Assembly (NCBI GenBank): GCA_040755415.1
Contig: JBFMAZ010000013.1
Coordinates: 10,877-74,876 of the forward strand
From: Thermodesulfobacteriota bacterium
GTDB taxonomy: Bacteria; Desulfobacterota; QYQD01
Length of the DNA stretch: 64,000 nt
Direction of reading: 5' to 3'
Part shown: in pieces, positions 8,077 to 60,994 of the stretch
Position numbering within the stretch: the stretch's first letter is position 1
Layout of the letters: every line of letters starts with the position of its first letter
Program-made: the position numbers and the translations under genes
Notes under the pieces: generated by a model
Told to the model about the DNA's origin: nothing
Seen by the model: the letters and a program-made list of their open reading frames with translations, nothing else
The model's database searches: none

Positions 8077-8113
8077 AACACTACTCCCTGGTTTTTTGAA
8101 ACATAAAAGTGTA

Positions 8114-8142
8114 TTTATAAAATTTCTTTTGACAACCGTCAA
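8114..8142 (-). promoter_or_regulatory. Putative sigma70 promoter for ffh operon: -35 TTGACG (8137-8142 comp.), 17-nt spacer, -10 TATAAA (8114-8119 comp.)
   Basis: Read directly on minus strand: cTTGACGgttgtcaaaagaaatttTATAAAtacac; located 38-66 nt upstream of TTG start. Confidence 0.4.
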
Positions 8143-8219
8143 GCAAATTATATTTACAATTTCTTCACATAATAGTAAGCCCGAATTCTAACAATCAAAA
8201 ATAAAGAACCAAAAAAACA

Positions 8220-8247
8220 TTGCTAAGTAGAATAAACTTATTATAAT
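8220..8247 (+). promoter_or_regulatory. Putative sigma70 promoter for rpoZ-dnaJ: -35 TTGCTA, 16-nt spacer, -10 TATAAT
   Basis: tTTGCTAagtagaataaacttatTATAATttttg, ~95 nt upstream of rpoZ ATG in AT-rich divergent intergenic region. Confidence 0.35.
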
Positions 8248-8342
8248 TTTTGTTTTATGTTTCTTATGTAGCGGTAATTAGTTACCAAAAATCATGTCCG
8301 TAGGCTTTTCAGGCCCAGGGTCTAAAGAAAGGATGATATAAC

Positions 8343-8585
8343 ATGGCACGAGTTACGGTTGAAGATTGTTTAAAAAAGGTTAACAGTCGATTTGTCCTGG
8401 TTAATCTGGCGAAAAAAAGGGTTCAACAGCTACGTACCGGCGCACAACCTCTGGTTCAATCCAGAAATAAGGAAATCGTCGTGGCCTTACGCGAGATAGC
8501 GGCAGGGAAGGTCACGCATGAAAATATAGATGAATTAGGAAAGGTTGAAAAAGGGCTGCAGGTAGAAGGGGAGATTAAAGAGTAG
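8343..8585 (+). CDS. rpoZ: DNA-directed RNA polymerase subunit omega
   Basis: 80 aa, [30 protein letters not shown]... canonical RpoZ N-terminus. Confidence 0.9.
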
Positions 8586-8597
8586 AACAGTAAAGAT

Positions 8598-9689: not shown

Positions 9690-9707
9690 AGTAGGGACTC
9701 ACAGACT

Positions 9708-10193
9708 ATGCAACCTCTAAGCCATTTTGATGCCCAGGGGAAGGCGGTCATGGCGGAGGTCGGCCATAAAGAAACCACCTATCGTCGCGCCCGGGCCACT
9801 GGTTCAGTCTTGGTAAACGCCGAAACCCTGCAAATAATTAAGGAAGGACGGGCTGATAAAGGGGATGTCCTGGGACTAGCCCGTGTGGCCGGCATCATGG
9901 CCGCCAAAAAGACCGGCGAACTCATCCCTCTCTGCCATCCATTATTCATCAGCAGTGTAGATATTACCTTTTCCCTGGATGAAACAAATAATAAGGTGTT
10001 AATCGAGGCCACGGTGAATAGCCAGGGTAAAACCGGTGTGGAGATGGAGGCATTGGCAGCGGTCTCTATCGCCGCCTTGACCATTTATGATATGTGTAAG
10101 TCAAAGGATAGAGGAATAATTATCACGGACATCTGCCTCCAGGAAAAAGAAGGAGGGAAGAGCGGCCACTATACAAGGCCAAGTGTACCGTAA
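9708..10193 (+). CDS. moaC: Cyclic pyranopterin monophosphate synthase MoaC
   Basis: 161 aa, ...KGDVLGLARVAGIMAAKKTGELIPLCHPL... MoaC. Confidence 0.9.
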   Translation: MQPLSHFDAQGKAVMAEVGHKETTYRRARATGSVLVNAETLQIIKEGRADKGDVLGLARVAGIMAAKKTGELIPLCHPLFISSVDITFSLDETNNKVLIEATVNSQGKTGVEMEALAAVSIAALTIYDMCKSKDRGIIITDICLQEKEGGKSGHYTRPSVP

Positions 10194-11016
10194 TTATCAG
10201 TTAACAATGCGCCCTCCAGAACTCGACCCTATAGATGTTACGTTACTTACCAGGAGGCTTAAAACCACGCCTTTCGCACGAGGAGAGATTCAGTATCTAC
10301 CAACCACTGGCTCCACAAATGATGTAGCGAGAGACCTGGCAGAAAAAGGCGCTCCGGAAGGGACTATAGTTATTGCCGAAAGCCAGACTAGGGGACGGGG
10401 GCGTCTGGGCCGGACGTGGCATTCACCACCGGGTACCGGCCTCTATTTTTCCATCGTCCTCCGGCCCTCGCTCGATCCATCCGACCTCCCCAAAATCACG
10501 CTGCTGGCCGGAGTAGCCGTTGCTGAAGCTATAGAAGAAACCACCGGCCTTCACCCGCTCATCAAGTGGCCGAACGACCTCCTGTTGGCAGGTAAAAAAT
10601 TAGCCGGCATACTGGCAGAGCTTTATGGCGATATTACCTCACCTTATGTTATCCTTGGGATTGGCATAAATGTTCACACGCGCCGCGAAGAGTTCCTCCC
10701 TGAACTGCAAGAAACCGCCACCTCTCTGGACATGGCCGGCGGACAAAACATCTCGCGCGCCAATCTCCTGCAGGCCATACTTACGCATCTGGGAAGGTGG
10801 TATGAATCATTCAAGAAGGGAGCGTTTCAGCCCATCCTGGACGCCTGGCGTAAGAGATGTGTTATCATCGGCGCCCGAGTCAGGATACTCTCTGGAGAAA
10901 AAGAACTGGAGGGAACCGTTGTCGATATGGATGTGACGGGCGCTTTGCTCCTTAGGGATCAGGCCGGACAGATCCAGCGTATCTTATCCGGTGAAGTCAT
11001 ACGGTGGGAAAAATGA
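10183..11016 (+). CDS. birA: Biotin--[acetyl-CoA-carboxylase] ligase
   Basis: GRGRLGRTWHSPPGTGLYFS... (BPL GRGRxGRxW motif), C-terminal BirA_C; 277 aa without obvious N-terminal HTH. Confidence 0.85.
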   Translation: MYRNYQLTMRPPELDPIDVTLLTRRLKTTPFARGEIQYLPTTGSTNDVARDLAEKGAPEGTIVIAESQTRGRGRLGRTWHSPPGTGLYFSIVLRPSLDPSDLPKITLLAGVAVAEAIEETTGLHPLIKWPNDLLLAGKKLAGILAELYGDITSPYVILGIGINVHTRREEFLPELQETATSLDMAGGQNISRANLLQAILTHLGRWYESFKKGAFQPILDAWRKRCVIIGARVRILSGEKELEGTVVDMDVTGALLLRDQAGQIQRILSGEVIRWEK

Positions 11017-11076
11017 GTTATTCGCACCCCAGCGCATCTTCGAACCGTAAGGGACATGACGACCTGAGAATTTATA

Positions 11077-11110
11077 AAAGAGGCGGGAGATTCATCCCGC
11101 CTCTTTTTTT
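11077..11110. terminator. Bidirectional rho-independent terminator between convergent birA and adk
   Basis: aaaagAGGCGGGAgattcaTCCCGCCTcttttttt: 8-bp GC stem, 6-nt loop, A-tract upstream and T-tract downstream. Confidence 0.7.
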
Positions 11111-11126
11111 GCAAATGTAGAGGGCA

Positions 11127-11804
11127 TTAGGCCAACTGGGCCATCAATTTCTCTGAGACTACATTGATGGGCGGCGCACCATCCACGGCAACTACCTTTG
11201 GCCCCGGCACTTTCTTGAAATAATTGACTGCCGCCATGGTGCCGCTGTTGGTATCGTAATAAATATCATGCCTTTTATCAATAGCGACCGTATCCTGGTC
11301 ATCGGCCCGCGTCTTTAAATCACCTCCGCAGACCCGGCAGACCAATTTCCCATCCTTTTCTACCGGCTTGATGGCATCAATATAGACATGGTTGGGATGG
11401 TTGTTGTCATTGACGCAAAGCCTTCTGCCCATAATCCTTTCCGCGGCTGTCTTGCGGTCCAGGGCGATCTCCACGACATAGTCAAGCTTGATGCTGGCAT
11501 CATTAAGCGCCTTGTGCAGGGCCTCGGCCTGGGCCACGTTACGCGGGAAGCCGTCCAGAAGCCACCCTTTTTTACAGTCATCCTCTTTAAGCCGGTTGAG
11601 GATCATGGGGATGGTGATGTCATCCGGTACCAGATCTCCCCGGTCAATGTATGCCTTGGCCTTTTTCCCCAGCTCTGTGCCCCCGCCTATATTCTTTCTG
11701 AATATAGCGCCCGATTCGATGTGGGGTATATTATACTTCTTCTGAACAATTGCCCCCTGCGTTCCCTTGCCACTCCCATTTGGACCAAAAATTAAGATGT
11801 TCAT
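11127..11804 (-). CDS. adk: Adenylate kinase (start moved to MNIL..., AGGAGG SD)
   Basis: MNILIFGPNGSGKGTQG P-loop; LID region with CRVCGG zinc-knuckle remnant; SD aaAGGAGGagtttcATG on minus strand. Confidence 0.9.
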   Translation of the reverse strand: MNILIFGPNGSGKGTQGAIVQKKYNIPHIESGAIFRKNIGGGTELGKKAKAYIDRGDLVPDDITIPMILNRLKEDDCKKGWLLDGFPRNVAQAEALHKALNDASIKLDYVVEIALDRKTAAERIMGRRLCVNDNNHPNHVYIDAIKPVEKDGKLVCRVCGGDLKTRADDQDTVAIDKRHDIYYDTNSGTMAAVNYFKKVPGPKVVAVDGAPPINVVSEKLMAQLA

Positions 11805-11923
11805 GAAACTCCTCCTTTCGCAAAAAATCACTGTTAGGACTATAGCAAAAAACCATTAATTATTTCCAGAATAAAATGAATATACATTCAAAAAATATTT
11901 GCCCCCTTCTCTATCAGCCATCT

Positions 11924-12077
11924 GAGGCTCTTGCAAAAGTCTTATGATCGGGTTGCCGTCATTCCGGCGAACTCCGGATCAGGTCCGGGGCAGGCGCCGG
12001 AATCCAGTGATTCCGACCAGATTAAGACACTACTGGACACCGGTTTTCACCGGTGTGACGACTTTTGCAAGAGGCTC
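11924..12077. repeat. TIR element family 3, copy 1: TIR GAGGCTCTTGCAAAAGTC...GACTTTTGCAAGAGGCTC, internal GNRA-tetraloop hairpin TTCCGGCGAA(C/A)xCCGGAA and CACCGGTtttcACCGGTG hairpin
   Basis: Near-identical ends and core at 25969-26099; partial related hairpin at 17552-17631. Gives spurious small ORFs ending ...VTPVKTGVQ on minus strand. Confidence 0.7.
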
Positions 12078-12248
12078 ATCTGTAAAGACTTGTATGCCCA
12101 CCCGGGCCTTTCCGCCTTTGTCCTTGACAATCATATCTAACTCATATAAAGCAGAAAAAGTTTTCTTATTTCCCCCTTTTCTTAATGACGGAAGTGGCCG
12201 ATATAGTAATAGATACAAGGGCCTTTGTGCCCTCAAGGAGGAGGATGC

Positions 12249-13835
12249 ATGTACAGAATCCTTCATAAATATTACTTGCTTTGTCTGTCTCTCCTTCTCG
12301 TAATTACTTCGTGCTGGGGCTGCGCCCGGCTAAAGGACAAACATCCGGCCGAACCGGTGGATAGCCGGCCACAGGGCAGACTCGTTATGTTTTTAAATGG
12401 CCCGCCGCAGGCCAGCCTGAATCTCACCTTTAGCCTCAGCAGCATTGCCGTCTTCAGCGAAGAAGGCGGGTGGGAAGAGTTGCCGCTTAAACCGCAACCG
12501 ATAAACTCCCGGGGTATAATCGGACGCCAGATCATCCTCGTGGAAAGCAAGCTTGTGGCCAGGACCTATGAAAAGGTGCGCTTTACCTTTGACCGGGCGC
12601 AGATCATTAAGGAAAATAAGGCCGCAGACCTTTCCATCCCTTCTGAAGGCCTGGAGATGGATTTTAAATTCAGGATAGTCAAAGGGCAGGATACTTCAGT
12701 TTTTATCAATTGGGATGTAGATGGGTCTATAGCGGATAATTATCTATTTATCCCCGCATTTGCGCTAAAGACAGAGATTCGCGGGGTAAGAAGCCAACTG
12801 GCTTATGTAACCAATGAAGAGTCAGACAATGTAACCGTTATTAATAGAGAATGGGACGAGGTTGTTTCTACCATAGCGGTAGGAAAGGCGCCATGCGGTC
12901 TGGCCGCCGGTACAAAGAAGACCAGGCTAAGGGTATATGTGGCCAATGCCAGGTCGAATAACATCACGGTCATCGATCCGACCCTAAACCAGGTTGAGCA
13001 GGCCGTACCGGTATCATTTGGTAAACAACCCCGGGCCATTGCCGCAGCGCAGACCCGGTCGGGCAAGGAATGTCTGTTTGTGGCCAATTATGCCTCTAAC
13101 AATGTCTCCATAATTGATACGGATAATTATGAAGAGATTGCACAGGTCAGGGTAGGGGTTGGCCCCATCGCCGTAATCACCGACCCCCCCACGGACACCA
13201 TATATAATATGAAAGGGCTGACGGCCAGCCAGTTGAGTCGCTGGAGGGATTACCGGGATCAACACCTGCATATATATGTAGCCAACAGTAAGACCAACAC
13301 CGTATCCGTTATTATTTTTAATACTTCTACACTTGCTGTGCAAGATACCCATACCTTAACCGTGGGCTGGAATCCGATGGCCCTGGACGTAGATGTGGAG
13401 CGGGGTAAGGTCTATGTAGCTAATAACGCCTCTGATACGCTCTCAGTCATCGATGCATTAAAGATCATGGATGGCTCCACCTCGGACGCAGTAACCACCT
13501 TAACCAATGTAGGCACGGGTGGGGTGGACATTGCGGTTGATGCCTACTTTATGAGGCTGTATCTTTTAAAGGACCGGCCCGGTGAATTGCTCTTTCTTAA
13601 GACCCCGGTGGAGGCCATCGCTGCATCCCTGAAGTCTATCATGACACCCATAACCGGATTGATCAATATGGACGGTTCTCCCCGGTCTATGGCCCTGGAC
13701 CCTGAAAGTAGAAAGTTTTATGTCGTGGATAGTGGGGGAGATGCAGTTCACGTTATAGATAAGACTACCCGACGTCAGATAAAGAGCATTCCCGTGGGTC
13801 GTAAGCCTTATGAGATTACGATGGTTCCTTTTTGA
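12249..13835 (+). CDS. YVTN-family beta-propeller repeat lipoprotein (start at MYRIL..., lipobox ITSC)
   Basis: At least five repeats of YVAN(A/Y/S/N)xSNN(I/V)(T/S)VID type; N-terminal signal peptide with lipobox; AAGGAGGAGG SD. Confidence 0.8.
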   Translation: MYRILHKYYLLCLSLLLVITSCWGCARLKDKHPAEPVDSRPQGRLVMFLNGPPQASLNLTFSLSSIAVFSEEGGWEELPLKPQPINSRGIIGRQIILVESKLVARTYEKVRFTFDRAQIIKENKAADLSIPSEGLEMDFKFRIVKGQDTSVFINWDVDGSIADNYLFIPAFALKTEIRGVRSQLAYVTNEESDNVTVINREWDEVVSTIAVGKAPCGLAAGTKKTRLRVYVANARSNNITVIDPTLNQVEQAVPVSFGKQPRAIAAAQTRSGKECLFVANYASNNVSIIDTDNYEEIAQVRVGVGPIAVITDPPTDTIYNMKGLTASQLSRWRDYRDQHLHIYVANSKTNTVSVIIFNTSTLAVQDTHTLTVGWNPMALDVDVERGKVYVANNASDTLSVIDALKIMDGSTSDAVTTLTNVGTGGVDIAVDAYFMRLYLLKDRPGELLFLKTPVEAIAASLKSIMTPITGLINMDGSPRSMALDPESRKFYVVDSGGDAVHVIDKTTRRQIKSIPVGRKPYEITMVPF

Positions 13836-25968: not shown

Positions 25969-26099
25969 GAGCCTCTTGCAAAAGTCTTGTAAATGGCGTT
26001 CTTGTCATTCCGGCGAAAGCCGGAATCCAGTAATTTCAAGCAGTTTAGATACCTCTGGACACCGGTTTTCACCGGTGTGACGATTTTTGCAAGAACCTC
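25969..26099. repeat. TIR element family 3, copy 2
   Basis: GAGCCTCTTGCAAAAGTC...GTCATTCCGGCGAAAGCCGGAATCCAG...CTGGACACCGGTTTTCACCGGTGTGACGATTTTTGCAAGAACCTC; matches 11924-12077. Confidence 0.7.
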
Positions 26100-29003: not shown

Positions 29004-31391
29004 TTAGTTCTCAATTGTACCTATGGACTGAAGTGCGGTCCGGGCCTCTTTAAAAAGGGGATTAACCTTAAGCGCCTTTTGCCATTTTCTCCTAGCCTCA
29101 GCTATGTGTCCCATTTTTTCATAAACCAGGCCCAGATGATAGTAGATTTCGTGATCTTTTTTCATCCGTTGCTGTGCTTCTTTAAGATGGTGGAGGGCTT
29201 GGGGATAATTATTTTTGAGATAATAAATCCGCCCTACTGTCTTCCAATAGAGGCTGTTTTGGTGATCGAGTTCGAGCGCTTTTTGACATAATGTATGGGC
29301 AATTTCCAGGTCGTTTTTTAGTTCAGCATAAAGCATACCCAACCAACTGAAGGAAAAGGCGTCAGCAGGGTTGCTCTTGACCGCCCTTTTAAATGCAGCC
29401 ATAGCATCTTTTTTTAGATTCAAGCCGAGATAAGCCTCACCCAGGTATCGGTATATATACCCCTTAGCATCCGGGCACTTCGCTGCTTTTTGAAAATAAC
29501 CAACGGCCTCCGTCCCTCTTTTCTGTTCTTGCAATAACTTTCCCATCTGAAAGAGGATCTCAAAATGATTCCCATTTAATGAAGCCGCCTGTTGCAGGGC
29601 CAAAAAGGCCTTGTCCGGGATGCCGGTTTTGAGATAGGCCAAACCCAGATTGTATTGGGCCATAAAATTATCTTTTTCCAGGGACAGGGTCTTCTCAAAA
29701 CAGGAAATGGCCCTTTTATACCATTTAAGCCGGGCATAGCAAACGCCCAGGCTATTTAAGAGATTGACGTCTTGCGGATCGAGGGACAGCCCCTTTTTAT
29801 ATTCCATTATGGCGCCATGGATATGGCCTGCATTGAAGAGCATATCCCCGCTTATATTGAGACTTACGGCATTAAAGGCGGTAATGGTGTCCGGGCCAAA
29901 GAAATCAGTATGTACAAGCGCCTTGTAGGCGTTAAAAGGGATCTCCTCTTTTTCATAATTGAGCGCCGGATAGCCGGCCAGGCCCATAGATACGGTCCTG
30001 CCGCACTCTTCCTTGATCTGAGATTTCAAATGCTTTCCTGCAAGAAGGGCCTCTTCCGGGCTAATATCCGGCAGGTAAATGAAAAAGGAGTCCTCAGTAC
30101 ACGGAAGGATCGACTGCCCCGGCGATAACCAGGAGTTTATCTTTTCCAGAAAAGGACTATAATCCCCTCCCCCATCCCGGGCGTCATATCTTGCCAATAT
30201 CAAGGAAAACTTCTTTGTTTTTCTCCACTTCCTTCCCAGTTTATCCGTAACCCGATGAATATTTACTGCCATTTTAAGGCTGATGGTCTCTTCGAGCTCC
30301 CGGGAAAAACAAAGAGGATAATCGAACCTGCCTTTGGCGACGGCCAGAGTCTCTTTACCTTTCTCGATAATAAGATCATATAACTTTTCTGGCGGCAGAT
30401 TCCGGCATTTTTCGTCTGAAAATCCCCCCAACCCCCCTTTACTAAAGGGGGGTGAGGGGGGATTATTTTCATTGTCCTTTGTGTCACTACACGACTTGTG
30501 TGTTTCGTTGCTGTTTATCGGATAGGTCAAAAGCCCTATAGCCGCCTTAATCCCATCCTTAAGGCGTCTTTTATTAAAAAGTTCAAATATAGCCAGACTT
30601 ATATTGCGGCCTCTCTCCTCATCACAAAAGGGCAGGACCAGGGCTAGGGTTGACTTATCTCTGCGGAACAGGCAGGAAAGAGCGATGCCTTTCAGCTCAT
30701 TTTTTATGGCCGGGATAATATCCGCCCAGAATTCACTGCGGCGGCCCGGTTTAAGGCTCGGGTTAGGGCGGCGCTTTAATGGATGATTAAAGAGTATCTC
30801 CATGAAAATTATTGAAAAGTTGGTATGCAAAGCAGGCAAATCCGGAAAGCCCTCTAGTTCGGATACAGGTTTGGTATCCCTGCCCTTCTGGCCCGTAGTT
30901 ATAAGCCGGATAAGGGTATCTTTAAAAAGTCCCGGGGCTAGTGCGCCGCTTTCCGCATCCGTAAAATAGGTCTTATATACCCGGACTTTTTCCAGGATTA
31001 ATTGGCTGAGCTTCGACCATTGGCTGGATAGTATATCTTTGTCAAATGTCCCGTCTGTATCTTTAAGTACAGCTATGCCGAGGGGCTTATTTTGCCATAT
31101 AAAAGGCAAGGATACGGAGTCGGTGTTTTTTTCAACGACAGGGACACTATTTGAAAAGACCTCTTTTATCTGAAAATCCCCCCATCCCCCCTTTAGCAAA
31201 GGGGGGTGAGGGGGGATTATTTTCATTTTGCTTTCGGTAATCAGGGGGCTAAGGATATCCGGCGCACAGTTCGCAGGCCAAAGGAGTACATCCTGGGCCT
31301 GAAAGAGAAGGCTTAAGTCATTCCTTATATCTTCCTGGAAAAGGAATATATCCTGTGGTTCTAATGAAGCTATGGAGGGCCTTTTTTCCAT
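29004..31391 (-). CDS. TPR-repeat protein (C-terminal ~300 aa of TPRs) with N-terminal uncharacterised region carrying two in-frame palindromic-element insertions
   Basis: Multiple 34-aa TPR-like repeats (…AISCFEKTLSLEKDNFMAQYNLGLAYLKTG…); insertions at 30422-30463 and 31177-31217 translated as NNPPSPPFSKGGLGGFSD and KIIPPHPPLLKGGWGDFQ. Confidence 0.75.
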   Translation of the reverse strand: MEKRPSIASLEPQDIFLFQEDIRNDLSLLFQAQDVLLWPANCAPDILSPLITESKMKIIPPHPPLLKGGWGDFQIKEVFSNSVPVVEKNTDSVSLPFIWQNKPLGIAVLKDTDGTFDKDILSSQWSKLSQLILEKVRVYKTYFTDAESGALAPGLFKDTLIRLITTGQKGRDTKPVSELEGFPDLPALHTNFSIIFMEILFNHPLKRRPNPSLKPGRRSEFWADIIPAIKNELKGIALSCLFRRDKSTLALVLPFCDEERGRNISLAIFELFNKRRLKDGIKAAIGLLTYPINSNETHKSCSDTKDNENNPPSPPFSKGGLGGFSDEKCRNLPPEKLYDLIIEKGKETLAVAKGRFDYPLCFSRELEETISLKMAVNIHRVTDKLGRKWRKTKKFSLILARYDARDGGGDYSPFLEKINSWLSPGQSILPCTEDSFFIYLPDISPEEALLAGKHLKSQIKEECGRTVSMGLAGYPALNYEKEEIPFNAYKALVHTDFFGPDTITAFNAVSLNISGDMLFNAGHIHGAIMEYKKGLSLDPQDVNLLNSLGVCYARLKWYKRAISCFEKTLSLEKDNFMAQYNLGLAYLKTGIPDKAFLALQQAASLNGNHFEILFQMGKLLQEQKRGTEAVGYFQKAAKCPDAKGYIYRYLGEAYLGLNLKKDAMAAFKRAVKSNPADAFSFSWLGMLYAELKNDLEIAHTLCQKALELDHQNSLYWKTVGRIYYLKNNYPQALHHLKEAQQRMKKDHEIYYHLGLVYEKMGHIAEARRKWQKALKVNPLFKEARTALQSIGTIEN
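30422..30463. repeat. 42-bp GC-rich palindrome inserted in-frame in TPR gene (copy 2)
   Basis: ATCCCCCCAACCCCCCTTTACTAAAGGGGGGTGAGGGGGGAT; near-perfect inverted repeat with central TTTACTAAA. Confidence 0.75.
31177..31217. repeat. 42-bp GC-rich palindrome inserted in-frame in TPR gene (copy 1)
   Basis: ATCCCCCCATCCCCCCTTTAGCAAAGGGGGGTGAGGGGGGAT. Confidence 0.75.
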
Positions 31392-32837: not shown

Positions 32838-33608
32838 TTAGCCCTTAGAAACAGTCATTGATCCCGAACGTTCCGATTGCTGTTCAAGTTGGCCGACCTT
32901 ATTAACATAAGAGCTTATACGGTCTCTATCTTCGGTTTTCAGACCTATAAATTGTAGTCCAGCCATTACTATCTTTTTATCTCCTTCCGTCCCCAGGCTT
33001 GACCATACCACCTGGCAATCCGTTTCAATAGGAAGGCTTTCGCCCGGAAGATTGAAGCGTACTGCACATCTCGCCCCCACAGACACCGGGTCATCAACTC
33101 TTACCAGTAAGCCGCCTCCTCCTATATTGACGGCATAAGCCTTGGCGAAATCCCGGCCGGATTTGAATTGAATGTCCAGGGTCTTCGCTGCACGTTGATC
33201 CTGGCGGCCGGAAAATGCGCTAATTCTAGCAGTCGTTTCACGCAGACGTTTTACCAAGGCCCTGAATACCATGCGCATATCCTGCGACAGTTTATTATAT
33301 TCATGGTCCAGGAGATCACGGTCCACGATACCTAGGGAGACGTTACCCCTGGCTATGGCCGAGGCGGAGCGCGGCGTTTTATCGACAAAACTCATTTCTC
33401 CAAAGACGTCGCCTTCTTTTAGGGTCTCTACGATAACCTTTTGCCCCCGGCAATATTTTGAGATTTCAACCTGGCCAGATAAGATCACATAGATCCAATC
33501 TCCGTAACTTCCCTCTTTAAATATATAGTCTCCGTCTTTAAACTGCATTTCATTCACAATGGAAAGCATGGGCTTCTTTTGCTCCTTGAGGGTTAAAGAC
33601 CAAAGCAC
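32838..33608 (-). CDS. Cyclic-nucleotide-binding (cNMP) domain fused to C-terminal PilZ-like domain; start uncertain (GTG 33608 or ATG 33569)
   Basis: cNMP: ...FKDGDYIFKEGSYGDWIYVILSGQVEIS...GEMSFVD...RSASAIA...; C-terminus has PilZ-like ...NIGGGGLLVRVDD...VRFNLPG... pattern. Confidence 0.7.
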   Translation of the reverse strand: MLWSLTLKEQKKPMLSIVNEMQFKDGDYIFKEGSYGDWIYVILSGQVEISKYCRGQKVIVETLKEGDVFGEMSFVDKTPRSASAIARGNVSLGIVDRDLLDHEYNKLSQDMRMVFRALVKRLRETTARISAFSGRQDQRAAKTLDIQFKSGRDFAKAYAVNIGGGGLLVRVDDPVSVGARCAVRFNLPGESLPIETDCQVVWSSLGTEGDKKIVMAGLQFIGLKTEDRDRISSYVNKVGQLEQQSERSGSMTVSKG

Positions 33609-34539
33609 CTATCCTTAACGTAAAAGATTATTTAGTAGCCCTATAAATGGGAATATTTCTTTGTTGAATTGGTACGTTACTCATTTTACATAGGTATGTC
33701 AAGATGTTATCACTTTTATGAGTGCCGGAAGGCATAATCTATCCCTCAAGACCTTAGTATTATTGAAGACATGCAAGAAGTGCCGGAGGGATAACCTATG
33801 GCCTGAATTTCGTGTTACGGTTTATATGCTGTAGAATTTGGTCGTAAATTCTGCTAGGATGTGACGGTGAGATCCGCCTCCGGCGGCATGGGACACGGCC
33901 TGGGTAACGCGCTGCAAGGCATATTAACCATAAGGAATTGTTTGACAATGGACAACGGCAGGATTCGCAAAAGAGATTCGGCAAGGCTGGTGTGGGATAG
34001 TAAGCCCCGCCGTGCGCCGAATCCCAAAGATATAGAGTTTCAGACCGCAGAGGTGGTCATCCTCAACCCTGTACATAGAGGACAGCTCCCTTTATCATTT
34101 AAAGACGGAATCTTGGGTGAGGCGGACATTGACAAGCAGAAGATGAACCGGCTCATCTGGGGTGACAACCTCCTGGCTATGCAGGCCCTGTTGGCCCAGG
34201 GATATGAAGGGAAGATAAACCTTATCTATATCGACCCGCCCTTTGACTCCAAGGCTGATTATTCCCACAAAATGACCATTCCCACTAATCCCTCTGGGAG
34301 AGGGCAGGGTGAGGGTCTTGAATTCACCAAAGAACCCTCGGTCATAGAGCGTCTCGCCTACAAAGACACCTGGGCCGGAGGCACGGACTCTTACCTTGAT
34401 ATGCTCTATCCCAGATTGCAGTTGATGAAAAGGCTGCTGGCAGAGGATGGGAGTATATATGTGCATACAGATTGGCATGTAGGGCATTATGTGAAGGTGC
34501 TGATGGATGAGGTGTTTGGGAAGGAAAATTTTATTAGCG

Positions 34540-34701
34540 GTAACACGTTAGCTGTTTGAAAAGAGCTAGTCGTCCAGAAAACGGCGCCTCGAAAATCCCC
34601 CTTAATCCCCCTTTTTCAAAGGGGGAAATGTTTCTCCTCCCTTTGGAAAAGGGAGGTTGGGAGGGATTTTAAAATACTTTTTCAAACAGCTAAACTGATA
34701 C
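34540..34701. mobile_element. MITE copy 2 (162 bp) inserted in mod; 8-bp flanking direct repeat TATTAGCG
   Basis: TIRs GTAACACGTTAGCTGTTTGAAAAG / CTTTTTCAAACAGCTAAACTGATAC. TATTAGCG at 34532-34539 and 34702-34709. Confidence 0.85.
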
Positions 34702-35665
34702 TATTAGCGAAATAGTATGGAAACGAACTGGCGCGAGGTCGATGTCAAAATATATTAATGCGATTCATGACGCAATTTACATTTATGCAAGAAATATCAA
34801 CAAAATGCTGTGGAACGGATATGTTACTGACTTTTCTGATGAGTATAAAAAGCGTTATTACAGGAATAAGGATGAACGTGGTAGATATTTTCAAGATACC
34901 TCTTTGATAGCTCCGGGCGAAGGATATTTATATGAGTGGAAAGGTATTGCAAAGCGCTGGAGATACAAAAAAGAAAAGATGGAGGAATTAGAAAAAGAAG
35001 GGAGACTTATCTATACAAATAAAGGGGGTGCCAGATATAAAAGATATTTAGATGAAATGCCCGGAGTTGCTCCTCAAGATATATGGTTAGACATCCCGCC
35101 TGTAAACTCACAGGCTTTAGAAGATACTAATTTTGACACCCAAAAACCCGAAGCCCTCCTCGAACGCATCATCAAAGCATCTTCCAATGAGGGCGATCTT
35201 GTCGCTGACTTTTTTAGCGGCTCAGGCACAGCACTTGCTGTTGCGGAAAAACTTAACCGTCGCTGGATTGGCTGCGAGCTTGGGAAGGTGGGCATACAGG
35301 TCACCCGCGCAAGGCTTGTAGAACAGCAGGCCAGGCCCTTCCTTATTGAGAACATAGGCAACTATCAAAGGGAGATGATCTATCTCACCGGCGGCAGGAT
35401 TTATGAGATGCAGCATCTCATCCTCAAGCTTTACGGCGCAACTCCCCGTGATAAATTAAGCGGACTTGGGATAAGAAAGGGTGAAGACGGCATAGAGGAG
35501 CTGGTTTATGTTGGTTACCCGGACCGGCCGGTTACCGCAAGCAAGGCGGAGGAACTGGCCATCCAGGCGCAAAAACTAGACGGCAGGGGCTATAAGAGAC
35601 TCATAATCCTGGGCTGGGATTATGAATACAACTATCATCAGGCGCTTGAATCAAGAAAGAAGGCA

Positions 35666-35707
35666 ATCCCCCCTCACCCCCCTTTACCAAAGGGGGTAAG
35701 GGGGGAT
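35666..35707. repeat. 42-bp GC-rich palindrome inserted in-frame in mod (encodes IPPHPPLPKGVRGD)
   Basis: ATCCCCCCTCACCCCCCTTTACCAAAGGGGGTAAGGGGGGAT. Confidence 0.75.
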
Positions 35708-36294
35708 TTTGTTGAGGTTATAAGCCGGGACATCCCGCCGGATATATACGATTATTTAAAAAAGGCAAGGACAGAGGAAGACATCGAAGCCCTTTCAGAC
35801 AAGGTTACCTTCTATGAAAGGCCATACCTGAAGATGGATGAACCAAGGATAAGCGATTTAAAAGACGGCAAGGTTGAGATTAGCCTGTCCATGAAACGCT
35901 ACGTCCTAATGGACATTCCCATAAGCCAGACCTCCAAGAAAGGGCAGGAAGACTATGCCGCCCTGATGAAGATAGCAAAGGATAATTTTGCGGTGCTTAT
36001 CGACTACTGGGCGGTTGACTGGGACTATGACGGTTTTACCTTCAAGAGCCAGTGGCGGGCATTCCGGGGCAACGGCAAAAAGGCCAGGACCGTTACCACC
36101 GAGGCAAAGGAGATTTTGGAAAAGAAAAGACGCATGATTGCTGTGAGGGTGGTGGATATATTCGGGAATGATGCCGGGGCTACGGTTGATTTACAATCCT
36201 GAAATAAGCAAGGGGATTATTGCATGATTTATGCGTAATCTGCAATAAGGGCCGATGTTATTGCAATATTCATCAATAAGCAAAAGAGGCTGGT

Positions 36295-37467
36295 GTGAAC
36301 CCAAAGGATTTTAAAAGTTCACCGTCAGGTGAGTGTATAAAGACTTTAAGAGACTATTGGGCGTTCATTCCTCATCCATTACCCCCTTTAATCAATTATA
36401 ACAAGGGCCTAATTCGCCTGCTCTCCGAGGCGGACCGGTTGCTGGGAGAATTATCGGGAACAGGTAGATTATTGCCTAATCCTTACCTCCTCATTGCGCC
36501 ATACAGCCGTCGTGAAGCGGTGTCAAGTTCAAGGATAGAAGGGACTCAGGCCTCTCTTAGTGATCTATTTTTCTTTGAAGCCGCAGAATTTGAGGAACCC
36601 AAAGTACCTGATGTCCGGGAAGTGCGTAATTATGTTCGAGCCATGGAATATGGGGTCGAGCGGCTAAAAGATCTGCCGGTTTCGGTAAGGCTAATTAAAG
36701 AGATACATAAAATTCTAATGAAGAATGTAAGAGGTGAGCACGCCACCCCTGGAGAACTCCGATGTAGCCAAAACTGGATAGGCCCACCGGGATGTACTCT
36801 TAACGAAGCTAAGTACGTTCCCCCGCCTGTTGAAGAAATGCACCAGGCATTAAGTAAGTGGGAAAAATATCTTCATTCAAGTGCTGATGAGCCTCCATTG
36901 ATTCAGTGTGCCTTGTTACACTACCAGTTCGAAGCAATCCATCCTTTTCTTGACGGCAATGGCCGTATTGGGAGACTTTTAATAACCTTTTTTCTTCTTG
37001 AAAAAGGATGCCTGACCCAACCTTTGCTTTATCTATCGGCATTTTTTGATAAATTCAGAGAGGAATATTATTCCAAGCTTCTTGCCGTAAGCCAAAAAGG
37101 AGATTGGCGGGGTTGGATTGAATTCTTTTTGCGCGGCGTAGCAAATCAAGCAAATGATGCTATAGCAGATGCAAAAAAAATCCTTGAACTACATGCTGAA
37201 TATCAAAAAGTCCTCAAGAGAACTAAAAAGGTTCCTGAATCTGCCCATCGGTTAATAGATGAGCTTTTTGTAAATCCTGTTATTTCGATCTCCCATTTGA
37301 GCAAAAAATGGAATATTTCGTTTAATTCTATAAAAACAGGCGTGTCAAGACTTATTGCAGTTGGCATTCTTCGTGAAGCCACAGAAAGAAAAAGACACAG
37401 ACTTTTTATTGCCCCTAGATTAATGGAACTTTTGACGGCTACGGATAAAAGGGAAACAGTAAAATAG
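36295..37467 (+). CDS. Fic-family protein (Fic_N + Fic core HPFLDGNGRIGR + C-terminal wHTH)
   Basis: Canonical Fic motif HPFxDGNGRxxR; GTG start with AAGAGG SD; stop overlaps res start. Confidence 0.85.
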   Translation: MNPKDFKSSPSGECIKTLRDYWAFIPHPLPPLINYNKGLIRLLSEADRLLGELSGTGRLLPNPYLLIAPYSRREAVSSSRIEGTQASLSDLFFFEAAEFEEPKVPDVREVRNYVRAMEYGVERLKDLPVSVRLIKEIHKILMKNVRGEHATPGELRCSQNWIGPPGCTLNEAKYVPPPVEEMHQALSKWEKYLHSSADEPPLIQCALLHYQFEAIHPFLDGNGRIGRLLITFFLLEKGCLTQPLLYLSAFFDKFREEYYSKLLAVSQKGDWRGWIEFFLRGVANQANDAIADAKKILELHAEYQKVLKRTKKVPESAHRLIDELFVNPVISISHLSKKWNISFNSIKTGVSRLIAVGILREATERKRHRLFIAPRLMELLTATDKRETVK

Positions 37468-37468
37468 G

Positions 37469-40294
37469 ATGGCCAAGAAAAAGAATCAAGAGGCATTTTC
37501 TCAGTTATATCTCGCTAATGCCCTAGAAGGCGAGGTTCAGGCATGGGTAGAACAGGGCTGGTCTGGGGTTACTCAGACCACCCTGGAGCTTTTCAATTAC
37601 TGGTTCAAAAGGGATGAAGATGCCACGGAAAGGTTTCACCCCTGCCAGCAGAGGGCCATTGAGACCGTCGTATATTGCCATGAAATCCTTCAAGCCAAGA
37701 CCCTGCCGGAAGTATTTGAGAGGGTAGCCCCGGAGGCTATTTATCAACACCTTCCATTGAAACAGGAAGTGGAGACCATCCCCTTCCCTAAGTATGCCTT
37801 GAAGATGGCAACCGGATCCGGGAAGACATGGGTGCTGGCTGCCCTCCTTGTCTGGCAATATTTCAATAAGCTTAAGGATGAGCGTCCTGGAAGTTATTCT
37901 TACCGTTTTCTGGTTGTGACCCCTGGGCATGAGGTCTTAAACAGGCTTCTTGATTCCTTTAAAGGGAAAAGGGACTTAAAGACAGACAATAGATTGCCTG
38001 AGACATCGGATTATAAACGCCCTCTGTTTATGCCCGAAGGGTCACTCTGGCGTGAAAGATTTCATCTGGATATCCTTGAGCCTGATGATGTTAAGCCTAA
38101 CACAACACCACCTGACGGTCCCTTTGTCTTTATAACCAACTGGCAGCAGTTCAGGCTTAAGTCCTCTGTATCCAGTTTATGGGATCAATTCACAGGCGCT
38201 GATGTTGAGGAAATGCCGAGAGGTGAGGTAATAGCCGATTTTCTCTCTGAGTATCCTGACCTTGTGATAATGAATGATGAGGCCCACCATGTGCATGGGA
38301 AGAAGTCTGCAAAAGGTGAAGAACTTGTCTGGCGGCAGTTTATGAATGTGCTTTATGCGAGGTTGAAGGAAAACCACAAAAAAGAACCGGGCGTATTTTT
38401 ACAGATTGATTACTCAGCCACCCCATTTTATGGAAGCGCAGAAAAAAGGGAATATTTCCCGCATATTATCTATAACTACGACCTGTTAAGCGCCATGCAG
38501 GACATGTTGGTAAAACAGCTTTTCCTTGAGCAACGACAGGCTATTGCCGGGGAATCTTTAGAAGAACTCGACTTTAGGGCTGAAAGATATGAGGCAGAAG
38601 GCGGCCATAAGAGGGGTGAAATAAAGGCCCTCTCAGCAGGACAGAAATTGTTGCTTGATATCGGCAGGAAAAAACTTGAACAACTTGCTGTTGAATTTAA
38701 AAAGAAGGGCATAACCAAAAAGCCCGTTATGATGGTCCTGTGTGAAGACACAACGGTTGCCGACCTTACAGCCGAGCATTTCGCGAGACTTACGGATGAA
38801 AACGGTCAGTATTACGATGGCACCAGGGCCCTCGTTATCCATTCCGACCTCCCTGGTAAGGAAATTGAAACAGCGAGAAAGAATCTCGACAGAATAGATA
38901 TAGATGATGATCCGCTAAGGATTGTCATTTCTGTTCTGATGCTCAGAGAAGGTTTTGATAAAAACAATATATGCGTTACCGTAGTCCTCAGGGCAACAGA
39001 GGCTGACTTATTGCTTGAGCAAATAGTCGGCAGAGGCTTGCGGCTGATGTTTCCGTCTTATGAATATCCGGAATTACAGGACGCAAAAGCAAAGGCTTAT
39101 CACCAAATAAAAAGAAAGAAAAATCCCTCCAACTCCTTTGATTTTCTTTTTGTCGTAGAGCATCCGAGATTTATAGAGTTTTATAATAAGCTTAGAGAGC
39201 AGGGATATGTATTCGGAGTGGGCGATACGAGTAAAGAGACATCAACCGGCGATATTATCCCTGTCGATGCCGTAACAGAGAGGATTCCTCTTTTTGATAT
39301 CGCCTGGCCCATACAGGTCTTTGACGAAGGAAAGATGCCCGAACTTTCGCAGATTGATATTAAAAGCCTTCCTAAGTACCGGGTTGACTTTAATCAACTA
39401 AAAAAATACCTCTCAAAGCTCATTATCCAGGAAACTCACGTGCAAACCGGCGCAAAGACAAGGGCCTGGAAATTGGACAATGAGTACTTTGACTACTCAT
39501 TTTTCTTAAGACAGGCATCAAAGGCCGTGGCTACGAGGGGAAAGACATCGATTCTTTCAGCAAAACAGGCGCAGATTGCCGAGACCATTGATGAGTATGT
39601 GTCAGAATATTGTTTTGGCAAACCCATAGATTTCTCCTCTCCGGAAAACTATCCGGTTCTCAACTATCAGCCTGTCTTCGACCATGTTGTCGAAGCGGCG
39701 AGCAACTCTATTATCAAACTCATCGAAGGCCATAAATTTGAAGTTAAGAAGGGTACATGGGGAAGACTATGCGATGTCCCGCGCATTATGGTAAGAGAAA
39801 GTAAATCGGTTGATACCGAAAGAAGCATTTACCCTAAAAACGGCTATCAACCAAAAGGTGGGGGATTTGAAAGAGATTTTATGCGGGAGGCGCTCAACAA
39901 CTCCGCCGATGTGCTTGCCTTTGCAAAGTTGGATAGACGGCATAAACTTAAAATTACCTATAGAGATGAGACAGGTATATTGAGAAATTACGAGGTTGAC
40001 TTTATAGTTAAGGCACCGGACAAAATATACCTTGTTGAAACAAAGGCGGACAAAGATATTGATAACCCTAATGTCGCCGTCAAGGTGCAGGCTGCTACCG
40101 CCTGGTGTGAGCAGGCGTCATTGGTGCCGCCACCGGAAGGTATGAACCAACCCCAACAATGGGAATATCTTATTCTTTCCGAAAGCCTGTATAAAAGTAA
40201 TAGGGGACTTTCGTTTGAAGCGCTTGTGCCTTTCTGTAAAGGGCTTAGGGATAATATTATTGCCAGGGCAAAAAGCCAACTATTTTTGTTCTAA
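37469..40294 (+). CDS. res: Type III restriction enzyme Res subunit (SF2 helicase + C-terminal PD-(D/E)xK nuclease)
   Basis: Walker A KMATGSGKTWV, DEAH box VIMNDEAHHV, motif VI QIVGRGLRL, C-terminal ...YEVDFIVKAPDKIYLVETKADKD nuclease-like motif. Confidence 0.8.
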   Translation: MAKKKNQEAFSQLYLANALEGEVQAWVEQGWSGVTQTTLELFNYWFKRDEDATERFHPCQQRAIETVVYCHEILQAKTLPEVFERVAPEAIYQHLPLKQEVETIPFPKYALKMATGSGKTWVLAALLVWQYFNKLKDERPGSYSYRFLVVTPGHEVLNRLLDSFKGKRDLKTDNRLPETSDYKRPLFMPEGSLWRERFHLDILEPDDVKPNTTPPDGPFVFITNWQQFRLKSSVSSLWDQFTGADVEEMPRGEVIADFLSEYPDLVIMNDEAHHVHGKKSAKGEELVWRQFMNVLYARLKENHKKEPGVFLQIDYSATPFYGSAEKREYFPHIIYNYDLLSAMQDMLVKQLFLEQRQAIAGESLEELDFRAERYEAEGGHKRGEIKALSAGQKLLLDIGRKKLEQLAVEFKKKGITKKPVMMVLCEDTTVADLTAEHFARLTDENGQYYDGTRALVIHSDLPGKEIETARKNLDRIDIDDDPLRIVISVLMLREGFDKNNICVTVVLRATEADLLLEQIVGRGLRLMFPSYEYPELQDAKAKAYHQIKRKKNPSNSFDFLFVVEHPRFIEFYNKLREQGYVFGVGDTSKETSTGDIIPVDAVTERIPLFDIAWPIQVFDEGKMPELSQIDIKSLPKYRVDFNQLKKYLSKLIIQETHVQTGAKTRAWKLDNEYFDYSFFLRQASKAVATRGKTSILSAKQAQIAETIDEYVSEYCFGKPIDFSSPENYPVLNYQPVFDHVVEAASNSIIKLIEGHKFEVKKGTWGRLCDVPRIMVRESKSVDTERSIYPKNGYQPKGGGFERDFMREALNNSADVLAFAKLDRRHKLKITYRDETGILRNYEVDFIVKAPDKIYLVETKADKDIDNPNVAVKVQAATAWCEQASLVPPPEGMNQPQQWEYLILSESLYKSNRGLSFEALVPFCKGLRDNIIARAKSQLFLF

Positions 40295-40363
40295 GTAAAC
40301 ACACAGAAGAAAGCGGCCCCTCCACCGTTAAATCAATCTCATAATCATGAGCCTAAGAAAGGC

Positions 40364-41161
40364 ATGCAAACAACAATGAACAATTTGATTCGTAAGATTC
40401 AGATAAATGTCCCTTTTGTCCTCCTCAAGAATAAATACCTGCCCATCATATTAAAGAACCGTATCAATCCAGAGATCGGCATAGATTGCCGGGCCCTGGA
40501 TGAATTTTCCCTGGATCAGTTTACAGAGATAGCACACCTCCTGCGTCAGGAAGACCTTTCGGTTACCCTGCACGCCCCTTTTATGGATATGGTACCGGGT
40601 TCGCCCGATCTACTTATGCGAAAAGCGACTATAAAGCGGCTACGGCAGGCATTTGAATTACTGCCGGTATTTGAGCCGCTCAGTATAATCTGCCACACTG
40701 GCTTTAACAGCCAAAGCTATCAAAATCAAGTCGATTCCTGGCTGGAAAGGAGTGTTGAGTCCTGGTTACCTTTGACAGAGCTGGCCCAGAGTGCGGGAAC
40801 AAAGGTGATGCTGGAAAACGTTTATGAGGAAAATCCAGACCTCCACGTAGCCCTACTCTCAAGGCTTAATTCACCCTGCGCTGGCTTTTGCTTTGATTTA
40901 GGGCACTGGCATGTGTTTGGCCGTACGGATATTGGCGAGTGGCTGGGAAAACTGAGGCCTTATCTGGGACAGCTTCACCTGCATGACAATTTAGGGGATA
41001 CCGATTCCCATCTAGCCCTCGGGCGTGGCAATATAGATTTCAGATCAGTTTTTTCCTGCCTGAAGAATTGCTCCCCTAAGCCGATAATTACCCTTGAACC
41101 CCATCGTGAGGAAGATGTTTTTAAGAGTGTAGAGGCCCTTAGCACCCTGTGGCCTTGGTGA
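40364..41161 (+). CDS. Xylose-isomerase-like TIM-barrel (sugar-phosphate isomerase/epimerase family) protein
   Basis: ...MLENVYEE...FCFDLGHWHVFG...GQLHLHDN... AP_endonuc_2-type metal-binding pattern. Confidence 0.65.
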   Translation: MQTTMNNLIRKIQINVPFVLLKNKYLPIILKNRINPEIGIDCRALDEFSLDQFTEIAHLLRQEDLSVTLHAPFMDMVPGSPDLLMRKATIKRLRQAFELLPVFEPLSIICHTGFNSQSYQNQVDSWLERSVESWLPLTELAQSAGTKVMLENVYEENPDLHVALLSRLNSPCAGFCFDLGHWHVFGRTDIGEWLGKLRPYLGQLHLHDNLGDTDSHLALGRGNIDFRSVFSCLKNCSPKPIITLEPHREEDVFKSVEALSTLWPW

Positions 41162-54360: not shown

Positions 54361-54700
54361 TTCGAAATCCGAAGCACGAAATACGAAACAAATTCAAATG
54401 CCTAAAATACAAAATTCAAAATATAATTTGGAGTAACATTTTAGGTTTTTGAAAAATATACCTAAGCAAGGCGCTATAAGGGCCAAAATCCCCCTCAATC
54501 CCCCTTTTCCAAAGGGGGAAGTGTTTCTCCTCCCTTTGGAAAAGGGAGGTTGGGAGGGATTTAAGAATACTTTTTCAAACAGCTAAACTGATACAATTTG
54601 GAAGATCGCGCCCTTGGTTCGCTGAAATTGAATAAGGTTTTGAAAATTTGATATTTGAATTTCGGATTTGTTTCGGATTTTGATATTCGATATTCGAATT
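54361..54700. repeat. Composite: family-2 AT-rich palindrome arms (54361-54425 and 54646-54700) with a 5'-truncated MITE (54486-54594) nested at its centre
   Basis: Left arm tcgaaatccgaagcacgaaatacgaaacaaattcaaatgcc...; right arm ...tttgaatttcggatttgtttcggattttgatattcgatattcgaa; centre carries aaaatccccctcaatcccccttttccaaaggggg...ctttttcaaacagctaaactgatac. Confidence 0.7.
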
Positions 54701-60801: not shown

Positions 60802-60994
60802 GTAACACTTTAGCTGTTTGAAAAGAGCTAGTCGTCCAGAAAACGGCGCCTCGAAAATCCCCCTTAATCCCCCTTTTTCAAAGGGGGAATGTAGGGGGAT
60901 CCCCTTTTTCAAAGGGGGAAATGTTTCTCCTCCCTTTGGAAAAGGGAGGTTGGGAGGGATTTTAAAATACTTTTTCAAACAGCTAAACTGATAC
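60802..60994. mobile_element. MITE copy 4 (193 bp; has 31-bp internal duplication of a hairpin module); 8-bp direct repeat GTAATTTG
   Basis: TIRs as in other copies; GTAATTTG at 60794-60801 and 60995-61002; extra GGGGGATCCCCTTTTTCAAAGGGGGAA module. Confidence 0.8.

Follow-up and report, generated by a model that had tools for sequence, protein, structure and literature searches.

Results

Layout of the locus

The stretch of DNA analyzed here, referred to as the window, comprises 64,000 nt of a contig (JBFMAZ010000013.1, assembly GCA_040755415.1, positions 10,877-74,876 of the forward strand) of a Thermodesulfobacteriota metagenome-assembled genome (MAG). Four plus-strand open reading frames (ORFs) follow one another at 33861-34559, 34742-36202, 36295-37467, and 37469-40294. 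An earlier note on this DNA had described them as the two halves of a methyltransferase gene (mod), a Fic gene, and a gene (res) for a 941-aa restriction subunit, and all of them are present as it stated. Together, we consider it likely that they represent a restriction-modification (R-M) operon of Type III that has been disabled by a miniature inverted-repeat transposable element (MITE) and that bears an autonomous SoFic-type anti-phage gene in the gap between mod and res. The features of the locus are collected in Table 1, along with the genes that occupy the same gap elsewhere.

A transposable element interrupts a single mod gene

The proposal that the first two ORFs are halves of one Mod proved correct. 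Upon in silico removal of the MITE and one copy of its target site duplication (TSD), they join in frame to encode 694 aa from ATG 33948; the restored protein gives a single PF01555 match that spans the junction and aligns end to end in tblastn with uninterrupted mod genes at more than 20 loci of other genomes (52-74% identity). Protein searches recovered intact Mods at 86% and 84% identity, of which the former (P0241, on contig L092), endowed with the same recognition domain, is colinear with the restored Mod through the junction ...FISEIVWKRTGARSMS... (...FGKKNFISEIVWKRTGARSMS... in P0241 versus ...FGKENFISEIVWKRTGARSMS... in the restored Mod). A naturally split methylase is therefore ruled out, since all orthologs examined are single ORFs and what separates the two ORFs of the window is a transposon flanked by its TSD.

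The catalytic motifs lie where the note had placed them, with DPPF encoded by the 5' half and FSGSG by the 3' half, and the break has the nature that it had claimed: the 5' frame continues into MITE copy 2, flanked by its TSD, and ends there at an in-frame TGA (34557-34559). The split stands, but the start that had been given for the gene does not. Homologs begin with MDNG... in the alignment, so that GTG 33861 is a mere upstream extension of the ORF and ATG 33948 the most likely start codon. An alignment of 16 Mods shows conservation of residues 1-200 and 341-694 and hypervariability of residues ~201-340 (mean identity of 11-38% per 20-residue window), which is where the recognition domain of a Type III Mod would be expected. 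The hypervariable region corresponds to ~34710-35200, and the MITE sits at its 5' edge, between S197 and E198 and directly before a conserved (I/V)(I/V)W motif.

The insert is short and non-coding, possesses terminal inverted repeats (TIRs) and a TSD, and occurs in several copies, as MITEs do. A second copy, at 2729-2890, shares 99% identity with it, and more diverged copies at 54433-54594 and 60802-60994 bring the total to four in 64 kb. Alignment of these copies with their flanks assigned to each its own 8-bp TSD (CAAATCTC, TATTAGCG, AATTTGGA, and GTAATTTG) and to all of them common ends, GTAACAC... and ...CTGATAC. The TIR core occurs seven times in the window versus 0.02 expected by chance, and the MITE read as RNA forms a very stable hairpin (-73 kcal/mol; z = -8.8), inside which a terminator-like stem lies at 34606-34626. 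The nearly identical copy, the individual TSDs, the excess of the TIR core, and the hairpin fold thus identify a genuine and recently active MITE, the insertion of which into mod is young. In its 162-nt length, TIRs, multiple copies, lack of coding sequence, and strong self-folding, the element resembles MITEs with an 8-bp TSD, i.e., non-autonomous derivatives of insertion sequences; the GTAA... ends together with the TSD length recall IS66-type elements, to which it may belong. The copy near 60.8 kb contains an internal duplication of ~31 nt.

Because the window stems from a MAG contig and a 99% identical copy lies 32 kb away, the MITE in mod might be thought to reflect a repeat-induced mis-join during assembly. 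We regard such an artifact as extremely unlikely: a perfect 8-bp TSD flanks the element, its removal brings back the precise reading frame, as is the hallmark of genuine transposition, and both flanks are syntenic with a sister genome.

Beyond the break, no canonical start codon occurs in frame before ATG 34742, and the public annotation (P0253) calls a 496-aa product (MVWKRT...) from ATA 34712. An active Mod is unlikely in view of the early stop codon, the hairpin, and the absence of a suitable restart, and the methylase is very probably inactive. Natural two-piece methyltransferases exist, and both fragments of this otherwise undamaged protein could conceivably be made, the second from the annotated ATA, and reassemble to sustain restriction. 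This is highly unlikely, as the break is a transposon insertion rather than an evolved split, the homologs examined are all single proteins, the second part has neither a canonical start codon nor an obvious ribosome-binding site before it, the MITE contributes its stable hairpin and terminator-like stem, and the break falls just ahead of the conserved (I/V)(I/V)W motif. Without a whole Mod, the system would have neither methylation nor DNA recognition; Res would be inert, because Type III Res depends on Mod, which supports the same prediction of the earlier note. Inertness of Res would also explain why the insertion was not lethal.

The note had further allowed for a phase-locked locus. No simple-sequence repeat tracts of the kind that mediate phase variation were found in 33600-40400; mod is therefore not a phase-variable gene of the phasevarion type, and the suggestion is inapt.

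A G/C-rich palindromic repeat lies in frame within the conserved C-terminal part of mod (Table 1), and related copies occur at 30419-30473 and 31173-31227. Neither 14 of the 15 aligned homologs nor P0241 have this insertion, but the sister genome has it in a shorter form, which makes it older than the MITE. This repeat is tolerated within the mod coding sequence.

Type III descent and an intact Res

Mod matches the PADLOC model MTase_III (4.9e-78), has the Type III Mods 6K0W and EcoP15I (4ZCF) as its best solved relatives, and displays the beta-class order of DPPF (motif IV), hypervariable segment, and FSGSG (motif I). The order of the genes, with mod upstream of res on the same strand, is that of Type III systems. 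Res is intact, as the note had asserted, and keeps every column that is invariant in 22 homologs: the Walker A sequence GSGKT, NDEAHH with its DEAH box, motif VI (QIVGRGLR), and D844/E857/K859 of a putative PD-(D/E)xK-type nuclease motif. It matches Pfam ResIII (1.3e-10), PADLOC REase_III (3.5e-29), and, partially, the NCBIfam restriction endonuclease BPTD_3080. The intact Mod that a Type III system requires for function is missing, owing to the MITE and the premature stop. From these features, the locus is probably a Type III R-M system by descent whose restriction activity is now lost. Res proteins of this family are 68-95% identical across Thermodesulfobacteriota, Nitrospirota, Nitrospinota, Planctomycetota, and other phyla, which points to frequent horizontal transfer of the R-M family.

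Classical Type III systems, such as EcoP15I, EcoP1I, and those with phase-variable mod genes in Haemophilus and Neisseria, share with this one the mod-then-res operon, the succession of motif IV, variable recognition domain, and motif I in Mod, and the predicted Res plan of a DEAH ATPase with a C-terminal nuclease motif. The combination of a hypervariable central mod and, here, a conserved res is likewise reminiscent of Haemophilus influenzae mod as described (PMC1557822). The window system differs in that Mod has an extra conserved C-terminal extension of ~300 aa, Res is too diverged for a sequence match to EcoP15I Res, inactivation comes from a MITE in place of the repeat tracts of phase-variable mod genes, and cargo is inserted between mod and res.

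A SoFic-type gene between mod and res

The third ORF encodes the Fic_N (PF13784, 1.2e-27) and Fic (PF02661, 1.3e-22) domains followed by a C-terminal winged-helix region, which is the architecture of SoFic. It aligns over residues 20-381 with positions 5-359 of the 361 in the PADLOC SoFic profile (E of 2.7e-125) and over residues 45-383 with the SoFic crystal structures 9TCH and 3EQX (E of ~1e-44; residues 38-365 of 9TCH); on a rough reading of the HMMER alignment to the S. oneidensis protein, about one-third of the aligned positions are identical. The catalytic motif HPFLDGNGR conforms to HPFx[D/E]GN[G/K]R, and SSRIEG, aligned with SSEIEN of SoFic, conforms to the (S/T)xxxE(G/N) motif of the N-terminal inhibitory helix by which the class is defined (PMC12249575). 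As judged from these matches, the protein is a homolog of the SoFic family, although not one certified as functionally equivalent.

SoFic is a class II Fic protein that confers anti-phage defense as a single protein and is toxic upon expression (PMC12249575). It AMPylates EF-Tu and is active as a dimer, and its binding to its own promoter takes place no more than 100 bp from the start codon (bioRxiv 10.64898/2026.07.09.737422). The full-length match to this defense family supports one half of what the note had proposed for Fic, a gene of the toxin or abortive-infection type; nothing points to the other half, a modification of Res or Mod. Unlike SoFic, the Fic gene described here sits in a Type III R-M operon. 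By analogy with the characterized protein, it probably still works on its own, and it would act independently of restriction as an abortive-infection toxin that blocks translation through AMPylation of EF-Tu. The N-terminal inhibitory helix and autoregulation through the winged helix are thought to restrain it.

The stop codon of Fic had been reported to overlap the res ATG. It does not: TAG (37465-37467) and ATG (37469) are separated by one base (TAG-G-ATG). The corresponding junction is an 8-nt overlap in an Ignavibacteria MAG (L013) and a 4-nt spacing in a metagenome contig (L097). Tight junctions with res are general, as a mere 1-8 nt separate mod from res in most loci with an empty gap and other cargos abut res as closely. 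Translational coupling of Fic and res is plausible but not special to Fic.

The E. coli SoFic has a small downstream antitoxin (PMC12249575); the 1-nt spacing between Fic and res leaves no room for such an AS1-like ORF in the window. This bears on whether Fic is mainly a toxin-antitoxin (TA)-like addiction module or a housekeeping regulator that stabilizes the locus rather than a phage defense gene. The toxicity of SoFic and its E. coli antitoxin (PMC12249575) would be in keeping with that role, as would the classical TA genes among the other cargos (HicA, PIN, and DUF4258 plus DUF2283). We nevertheless find it very unlikely, since no small ORF fits behind Fic, the protein contains the class II inhibitory helix as a part of itself (SSRIEG), and the family is listed as a defense system that the window protein matches over its full length in PADLOC.

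A conserved repeat array upstream of Fic

The 200 nt preceding Fic were compared among the window and nine close relatives (71-82% identity) in varied contexts. All 10 loci present the same layout, i.e., TTATTGCAGGAT, ~8 nt, ATCCTGCAATAA, ~11 nt, TTATTGCAGGAT, ~15 nt, a Shine-Dalgarno sequence, and the start codon, independently of the gene context. In the window, a fourth repeat (36196-36207), which precedes these three, overlaps the stop codon of mod. The spacer that precedes Fic in the Mod-Fic-Res arrangement measures 92-185 nt (window and L013), and other cargos usually start at the mod stop or a few bases from it. A scan of 33000-41000 for structured RNAs returned no Rfam family at the gathering threshold.

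The position of the repeats, at most 100 nt from the Fic start, parallels the reported binding of SoFic to its own promoter and marks them as a predicted operator. They thus offer a concrete candidate binding site for autoregulation of the SoFic type. We infer from this conservation that Fic carries an autoregulated promoter of its own, from which Fic and possibly also the closely following res would be transcribed; with such a promoter, Fic would escape the polarity of the MITE.

The same features could be read as a control device, in which the winged helix of Fic and the repeat operator switch res, or the whole operon where Fic precedes mod, and delay the nuclease after transfer in the manner of a C protein. 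The operator-like repeats are conserved right upstream of Fic in all contexts, res follows Fic tightly in the Mod-Fic-Res loci, mod begins 21-30 nt after Fic in two further loci (L087 and L090), and SoFic binds its own promoter (bioRxiv 10.64898/2026.07.09.737422). Such a role is nonetheless distinctly unlikely: loci with an empty gap or another cargo manage without Fic, res is packed equally tightly behind any upstream gene, and solitary Fic genes keep the same operator, which hence serves Fic.

The backbone is inherited vertically, and its variable parts are exchanged

In a sister MAG (L001, which is also L007), this operon occupies the identical chromosomal site; mod is intact there, and Res is 95% identical at the amino acid level. 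The two genomes are ~90% identical in nucleotides over the R-M backbone and its flanks, and they have the same housekeeping neighbors, namely selA, a cNMP/PilZ gene, a gene of the AP-endonuclease-2 family, and that of alanine racemase. This similarity is interrupted twice. One gap (34533-35201) starts exactly at the MITE site and spans the recognition domain; the other (36249-37468) is the Fic cassette, in place of which the sister has a 281-aa protein and DUF4325. The mod segment at 35201-36248 is ~89% identical to the sister.

Synonymous divergence (dS) from the sister is 0.25-0.45 and similar for R-M genes and flanks. The ratio of nonsynonymous to synonymous divergence (dN/dS) amounts to 0.076 in res, and the conserved stretches of mod have values of 0.035 and 0.082, versus 0.145-0.154 in selA and alr. 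The shared site, the flank-like dS, and the low dN/dS place the R-M system at this site in the common ancestor, under strong purifying selection since. There is no decay of the locus beyond the recent MITE hit. The decaying locus envisaged by the note is thus not borne out, given the lack of further lesions and the dN/dS of 0.04-0.08 for mod parts and res.

A horizontally acquired, AT-rich island had also been proposed. The compositional shift is real, albeit modest (45.2% versus 48.8% GC): set against a mean of 48.3% (standard deviation, 1.2%), the interval is the lowest 6.4-kb stretch of the window (0 of 448 non-overlapping segments are as low). The dip is borne by the exchanged or mobile parts, Fic with 42.2% (35.5% at third codon positions) and the recognition region with 38.5%, and also by res with 44.8%; the conserved parts of mod stand at 50%. 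The proposal requires qualification, as the cargo and the recognition domain are all that differs between the window and the sister. As the R-M backbone occupies the same site in the sister and has diverged like the housekeeping flanks, a recently acquired low-GC island is ruled out as the main explanation.

In the sister (L007, 6701-6768), the mod stop is immediately followed by the initial palindrome of the operator of the Fic clade (GTTATTGCAGAAT...ATCCTGCAATAAC), and the ribosome-binding site of the other cargo comes next, an arrangement that resembles a scar left by cassette replacement. Since the sister lacks Fic and yet keeps this palindrome, the break of the cargo swap would have fallen within the Fic operator, pointing to Fic as the earlier occupant of the site.

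The mod-res junction is a cargo slot

Genomic contexts were drawn from protein look-ups and from 80 loci in species-representative genomes. Cargo was counted in 28 species-level loci with both genes visible, the mod-then-res order, and a Res identity of at least 46%. The gap was filled with same-strand ORFs in 15 of them and empty in 13. At least 12 unrelated and interchangeable cargos were encountered (Table 1). On the strength of this comparison, the mod-res junction of the Type III family appears as a hotspot for defense cargo, the exchange of which would take place through recombination between two conserved ends, 3' in mod and 5' in res.

Several observations concern the slot in individual genomes. 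The gene for the small STAS-like protein DUF4325 recurs as the final cargo gene ahead of res, once paired with a 281-aa protein (L007, 6766-7994) and once with a Ppl-like PHP-ATPase (L008, 7526-7960). In Nitrospira sp. (L028) and Candidatus Brocadia sp. (L038), the R-M system is degraded, mod having an internal deletion or surviving as remnants and res being frameshifted or truncated, and the ORFs in the gap are open; cargo may thus outlive its host R-M system. In the more remote family members L033 and L035, with a Res identity of ~53%, the order is reversed and res lies upstream of mod.

Table 1. Features of the window locus and genes found in the mod-res gap of related loci
Feature	Position or locus	Strand	Description
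mod, 5' part (codons 1-197)	33948-34539	+	conserved N-terminal catalytic region, motif IV DPPF
TSD, left copy	34532-34539		8 bp, TATTAGCG
MITE copy 2 of 4	34540-34701		162 nt, TIRs GTAACACGTTAGCTGTTTGAAAA and TTTTCAAACAGCTAAACTGATAC, non-coding
TSD, right copy	34702-34709		8 bp, TATTAGCG
mod, 3' part (codons 198-694)	34710-36202	+	recognition region, motif I FSGSG, conserved ~300-aa C-terminal extension
G/C-rich palindromic repeat	35656-35710		CCCCCC...GGGGGG hairpin, in frame in conserved C-terminal part of mod, encodes ...PHPPLPKGVRGDF...
mod-Fic spacer, proposed promoter/operator of Fic cassette	36196-36294	+	clustered TTATTGCAGGAT-like repeats, then Shine-Dalgarno AGAGG
TTATTGCAGGAT-like repeats	36196-36207, 36217-36228, 36237-36248, 36258-36269	-, +, -, +	
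Fic	36295-37467	+	390 aa, SoFic-type class II Fic AMPylase, core HPFLDGNGRIGR
res	37469-40294	+	941 aa, intact, predicted SF2 helicase-type ATPase and C-terminal nuclease motif
Cargo	L013		SoFic
Cargo	L022, L028		DarT and DarG
Cargo	L008, L018		Ppl-like PHP-ATPase (with DUF4325 in L008, with HicA in L018)
Cargo	L007, 6766-7994		281-aa protein and DUF4325, both resembling the N terminus of DISARM DrmA (PADLOC)
Cargo	L010, L014		DUF1828/PDC-M24B
Cargo	L021, L034		DUF3800
Cargo	L041		PDC-M30A and spore-photoproduct-lyase-like protein
Cargo	L009		SDH-type ClpP-like protease and DUF2283
Cargo	L027		PIN
Cargo	L026		DUF2283 alone
Cargo	L038		DUF4258 and DUF2283
Further context	L092		192-aa protein, DndB, and SDH-type protease
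Further context	P0242 contig		two small ORFs, then HicA

Fic is one filling of the slot

The note had called Mod-Fic-Res a non-canonical arrangement and asked whether it recurs. It does, intact in the Ignavibacteria MAG (L013; 67% identity for Mod, 74% for Fic, and 73% for Res) and partially in L097, and to that extent it is not a singularity; Fic is nevertheless only one of the at least 12 interchangeable fillings. L097, a metagenome contig of 2.8 kb, is only partly usable and was rejected as a clean third example, as it shows just the 3' end of mod and a res frame that is interrupted after ~34 codons.

Among the 10 loci of the close Fic clade, three have Fic between mod and res (window, L013, and L097), two have it immediately upstream of another kind of Type III-like mod (L087 and L090), and in five it does not adjoin a Type III mod. 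The Fic relatives in L087 and in L090 (a Nitrospirota MAG, 6001-13158) are 79-82% identical to the window protein and lie upstream of a mod of a second family, which in L090 is separated from its res by a UvrD-like helicase and DUF3800. Embedded cargo and the association with Fic are therefore seen in a second Type III family as well. Around ~83 more distant SoFic-like genes, the 133 first neighbors include ResIII four times, HsdM-type genes three times, and N6_N4_Mtase three times; R-M genes are among the most frequent neighbor classes and yet amount to only ~10%. An obligate partnership between Fic and R-M systems finds no support in this figure. The distribution fits a defense gene that favors R-M neighborhoods rather than an obligate subunit.

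A tighter bond would exist if Fic were wired to the Type III enzyme as PrrC is to EcoPrrI, being silenced by the Mod/Res complex and freed as a toxin that blocks translation once a phage anti-restriction protein disables the enzyme, or, in a variant, if it AMPylated Res or Mod. PrrC in its Type IC locus does sense an inhibited restriction enzyme (PMC12707154), half of the 10 closest Fic genes adjoin a Type III mod (three in the gap and two upstream), and Fic and res are closely packed in three loci. We consider such a guardian improbable in view of a slot that holds at least 12 unrelated cargos, the solitary occurrence of the same Fic clade, its presence with two Type III families and in two positions, and the protection that SoFic affords as a single gene (PMC12249575). 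Moreover, a broken Mod would leave a guardian permanently released or useless, and yet Fic is intact. Mod-Fic-Res is not a dedicated three-part machine but one filling of a general cargo slot.

Some findings nonetheless weigh against the reading of the locus as a disabled Type III operon with an autonomous, self-regulated SoFic gene. No solved structure, whether of a Type III Res or of another protein, is recognizably related to Res in sequence. The Fic protein scores 209.6 bits with the NCBIfam SoFic model NF046030, below its equivalog cut-off of 550. A simple scan detected no sigma-70 promoter in 36203-36294, and sigma-70 sites in the region are in total no more numerous than in shuffled sequences, so that the argument for a Fic promoter is one from repeat conservation. 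The half-operator retained by the sister could in part be backbone instead of a remnant of Fic. Finally, the proximity of five of the 10 close Fic relatives to a Type III mod, set against ~10% of R-M neighbors in the wider family, leaves room for a functional link.

Other repeats in the window

An AT-rich dispersed repeat family (AAATTCGAAATCCGAAGCACGAAA...-like, with inverted partners) occurs at 17410, 18757, 20664, 22683, 45472, 50473, 54358, and 55911, one of its copies being right beside MITE copy 3. A 56-nt sequence with the hairpin GGACACCGGTTTTCACCGGTGTGAC is present at 12022-12077 and 26044-26099 in copies that are 88% identical. Small repeats seem to abound in this genome.

Discussion

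An embedded defense gene has been defined as one nested, on the same strand, between the genes of a multi-gene defense system (Payne et al. 2024, bioRxiv 10.1101/2024.01.29.577857), and the Fic gene described here is such a gene. This 'guilt by embedding' has been published for Type I RM, BREX, DISARM, and Hma systems. Known cases include PrrC in EcoPrrI (PMC12707154) and TgvAB in a Type I RM system of V. cholerae. In the searchable literature, the coverage of which is incomplete, we found no reports of genes embedded in Type III R-M systems. The cargo of the mod-res slot has much in common with that of the published hosts: it is encoded on the same strand, tightly packed, diverse, and mostly of the defense or TA type, and several of its members match PDC models that the Payne study derived from BREX and DISARM as well as Type I RM loci (PDC-M24B, PDC-M30A, and PDC-S04). 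It differs from the published examples in that the host is a Type III R-M system and the slot a single junction, between mod and res, and in that the sister pair displays the replacement of a cassette directly at a fixed chromosomal locus.

A more ambitious synthesis would hold that the slot is dedicated and serviced by recombination, and that SoFic acts as a PrrC-like back-up, which is wired to the enzyme, shuts down translation by AMPylation of EF-Tu once a phage neutralizes the Mod/Res complex, and sets res expression through its operator and the tight junction. We deem this unlikely. The data favor a simpler reading, in which the slot merely co-transfers and co-regulates independent defense genes.

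Type III R-M systems, SoFic, and a MITE knockout are each ordinary, and it is their comparison across genomes that adds more. It extends guilt by embedding to Type III systems, with cargo in about half of the sampled species-level loci, and the cargo ranges from validated systems (DarTG and SoFic) through families known from Type I, BREX, or DISARM loci to unannotated proteins. Candidate defense genes emerge from this range, namely the 281-aa protein next to DUF4325, the 192-aa protein found together with DndB and the SDH-type protease, and DUF3800.

To conclude, the sister pair, in which recognition domain and cargo have been swapped on a vertically inherited backbone, depicts the in-place diversification of a defense locus. 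The window locus would in turn amount to a natural knockout, in which a Type III system tolerates the loss of Mod and the embedded gene is left as the surviving defense.

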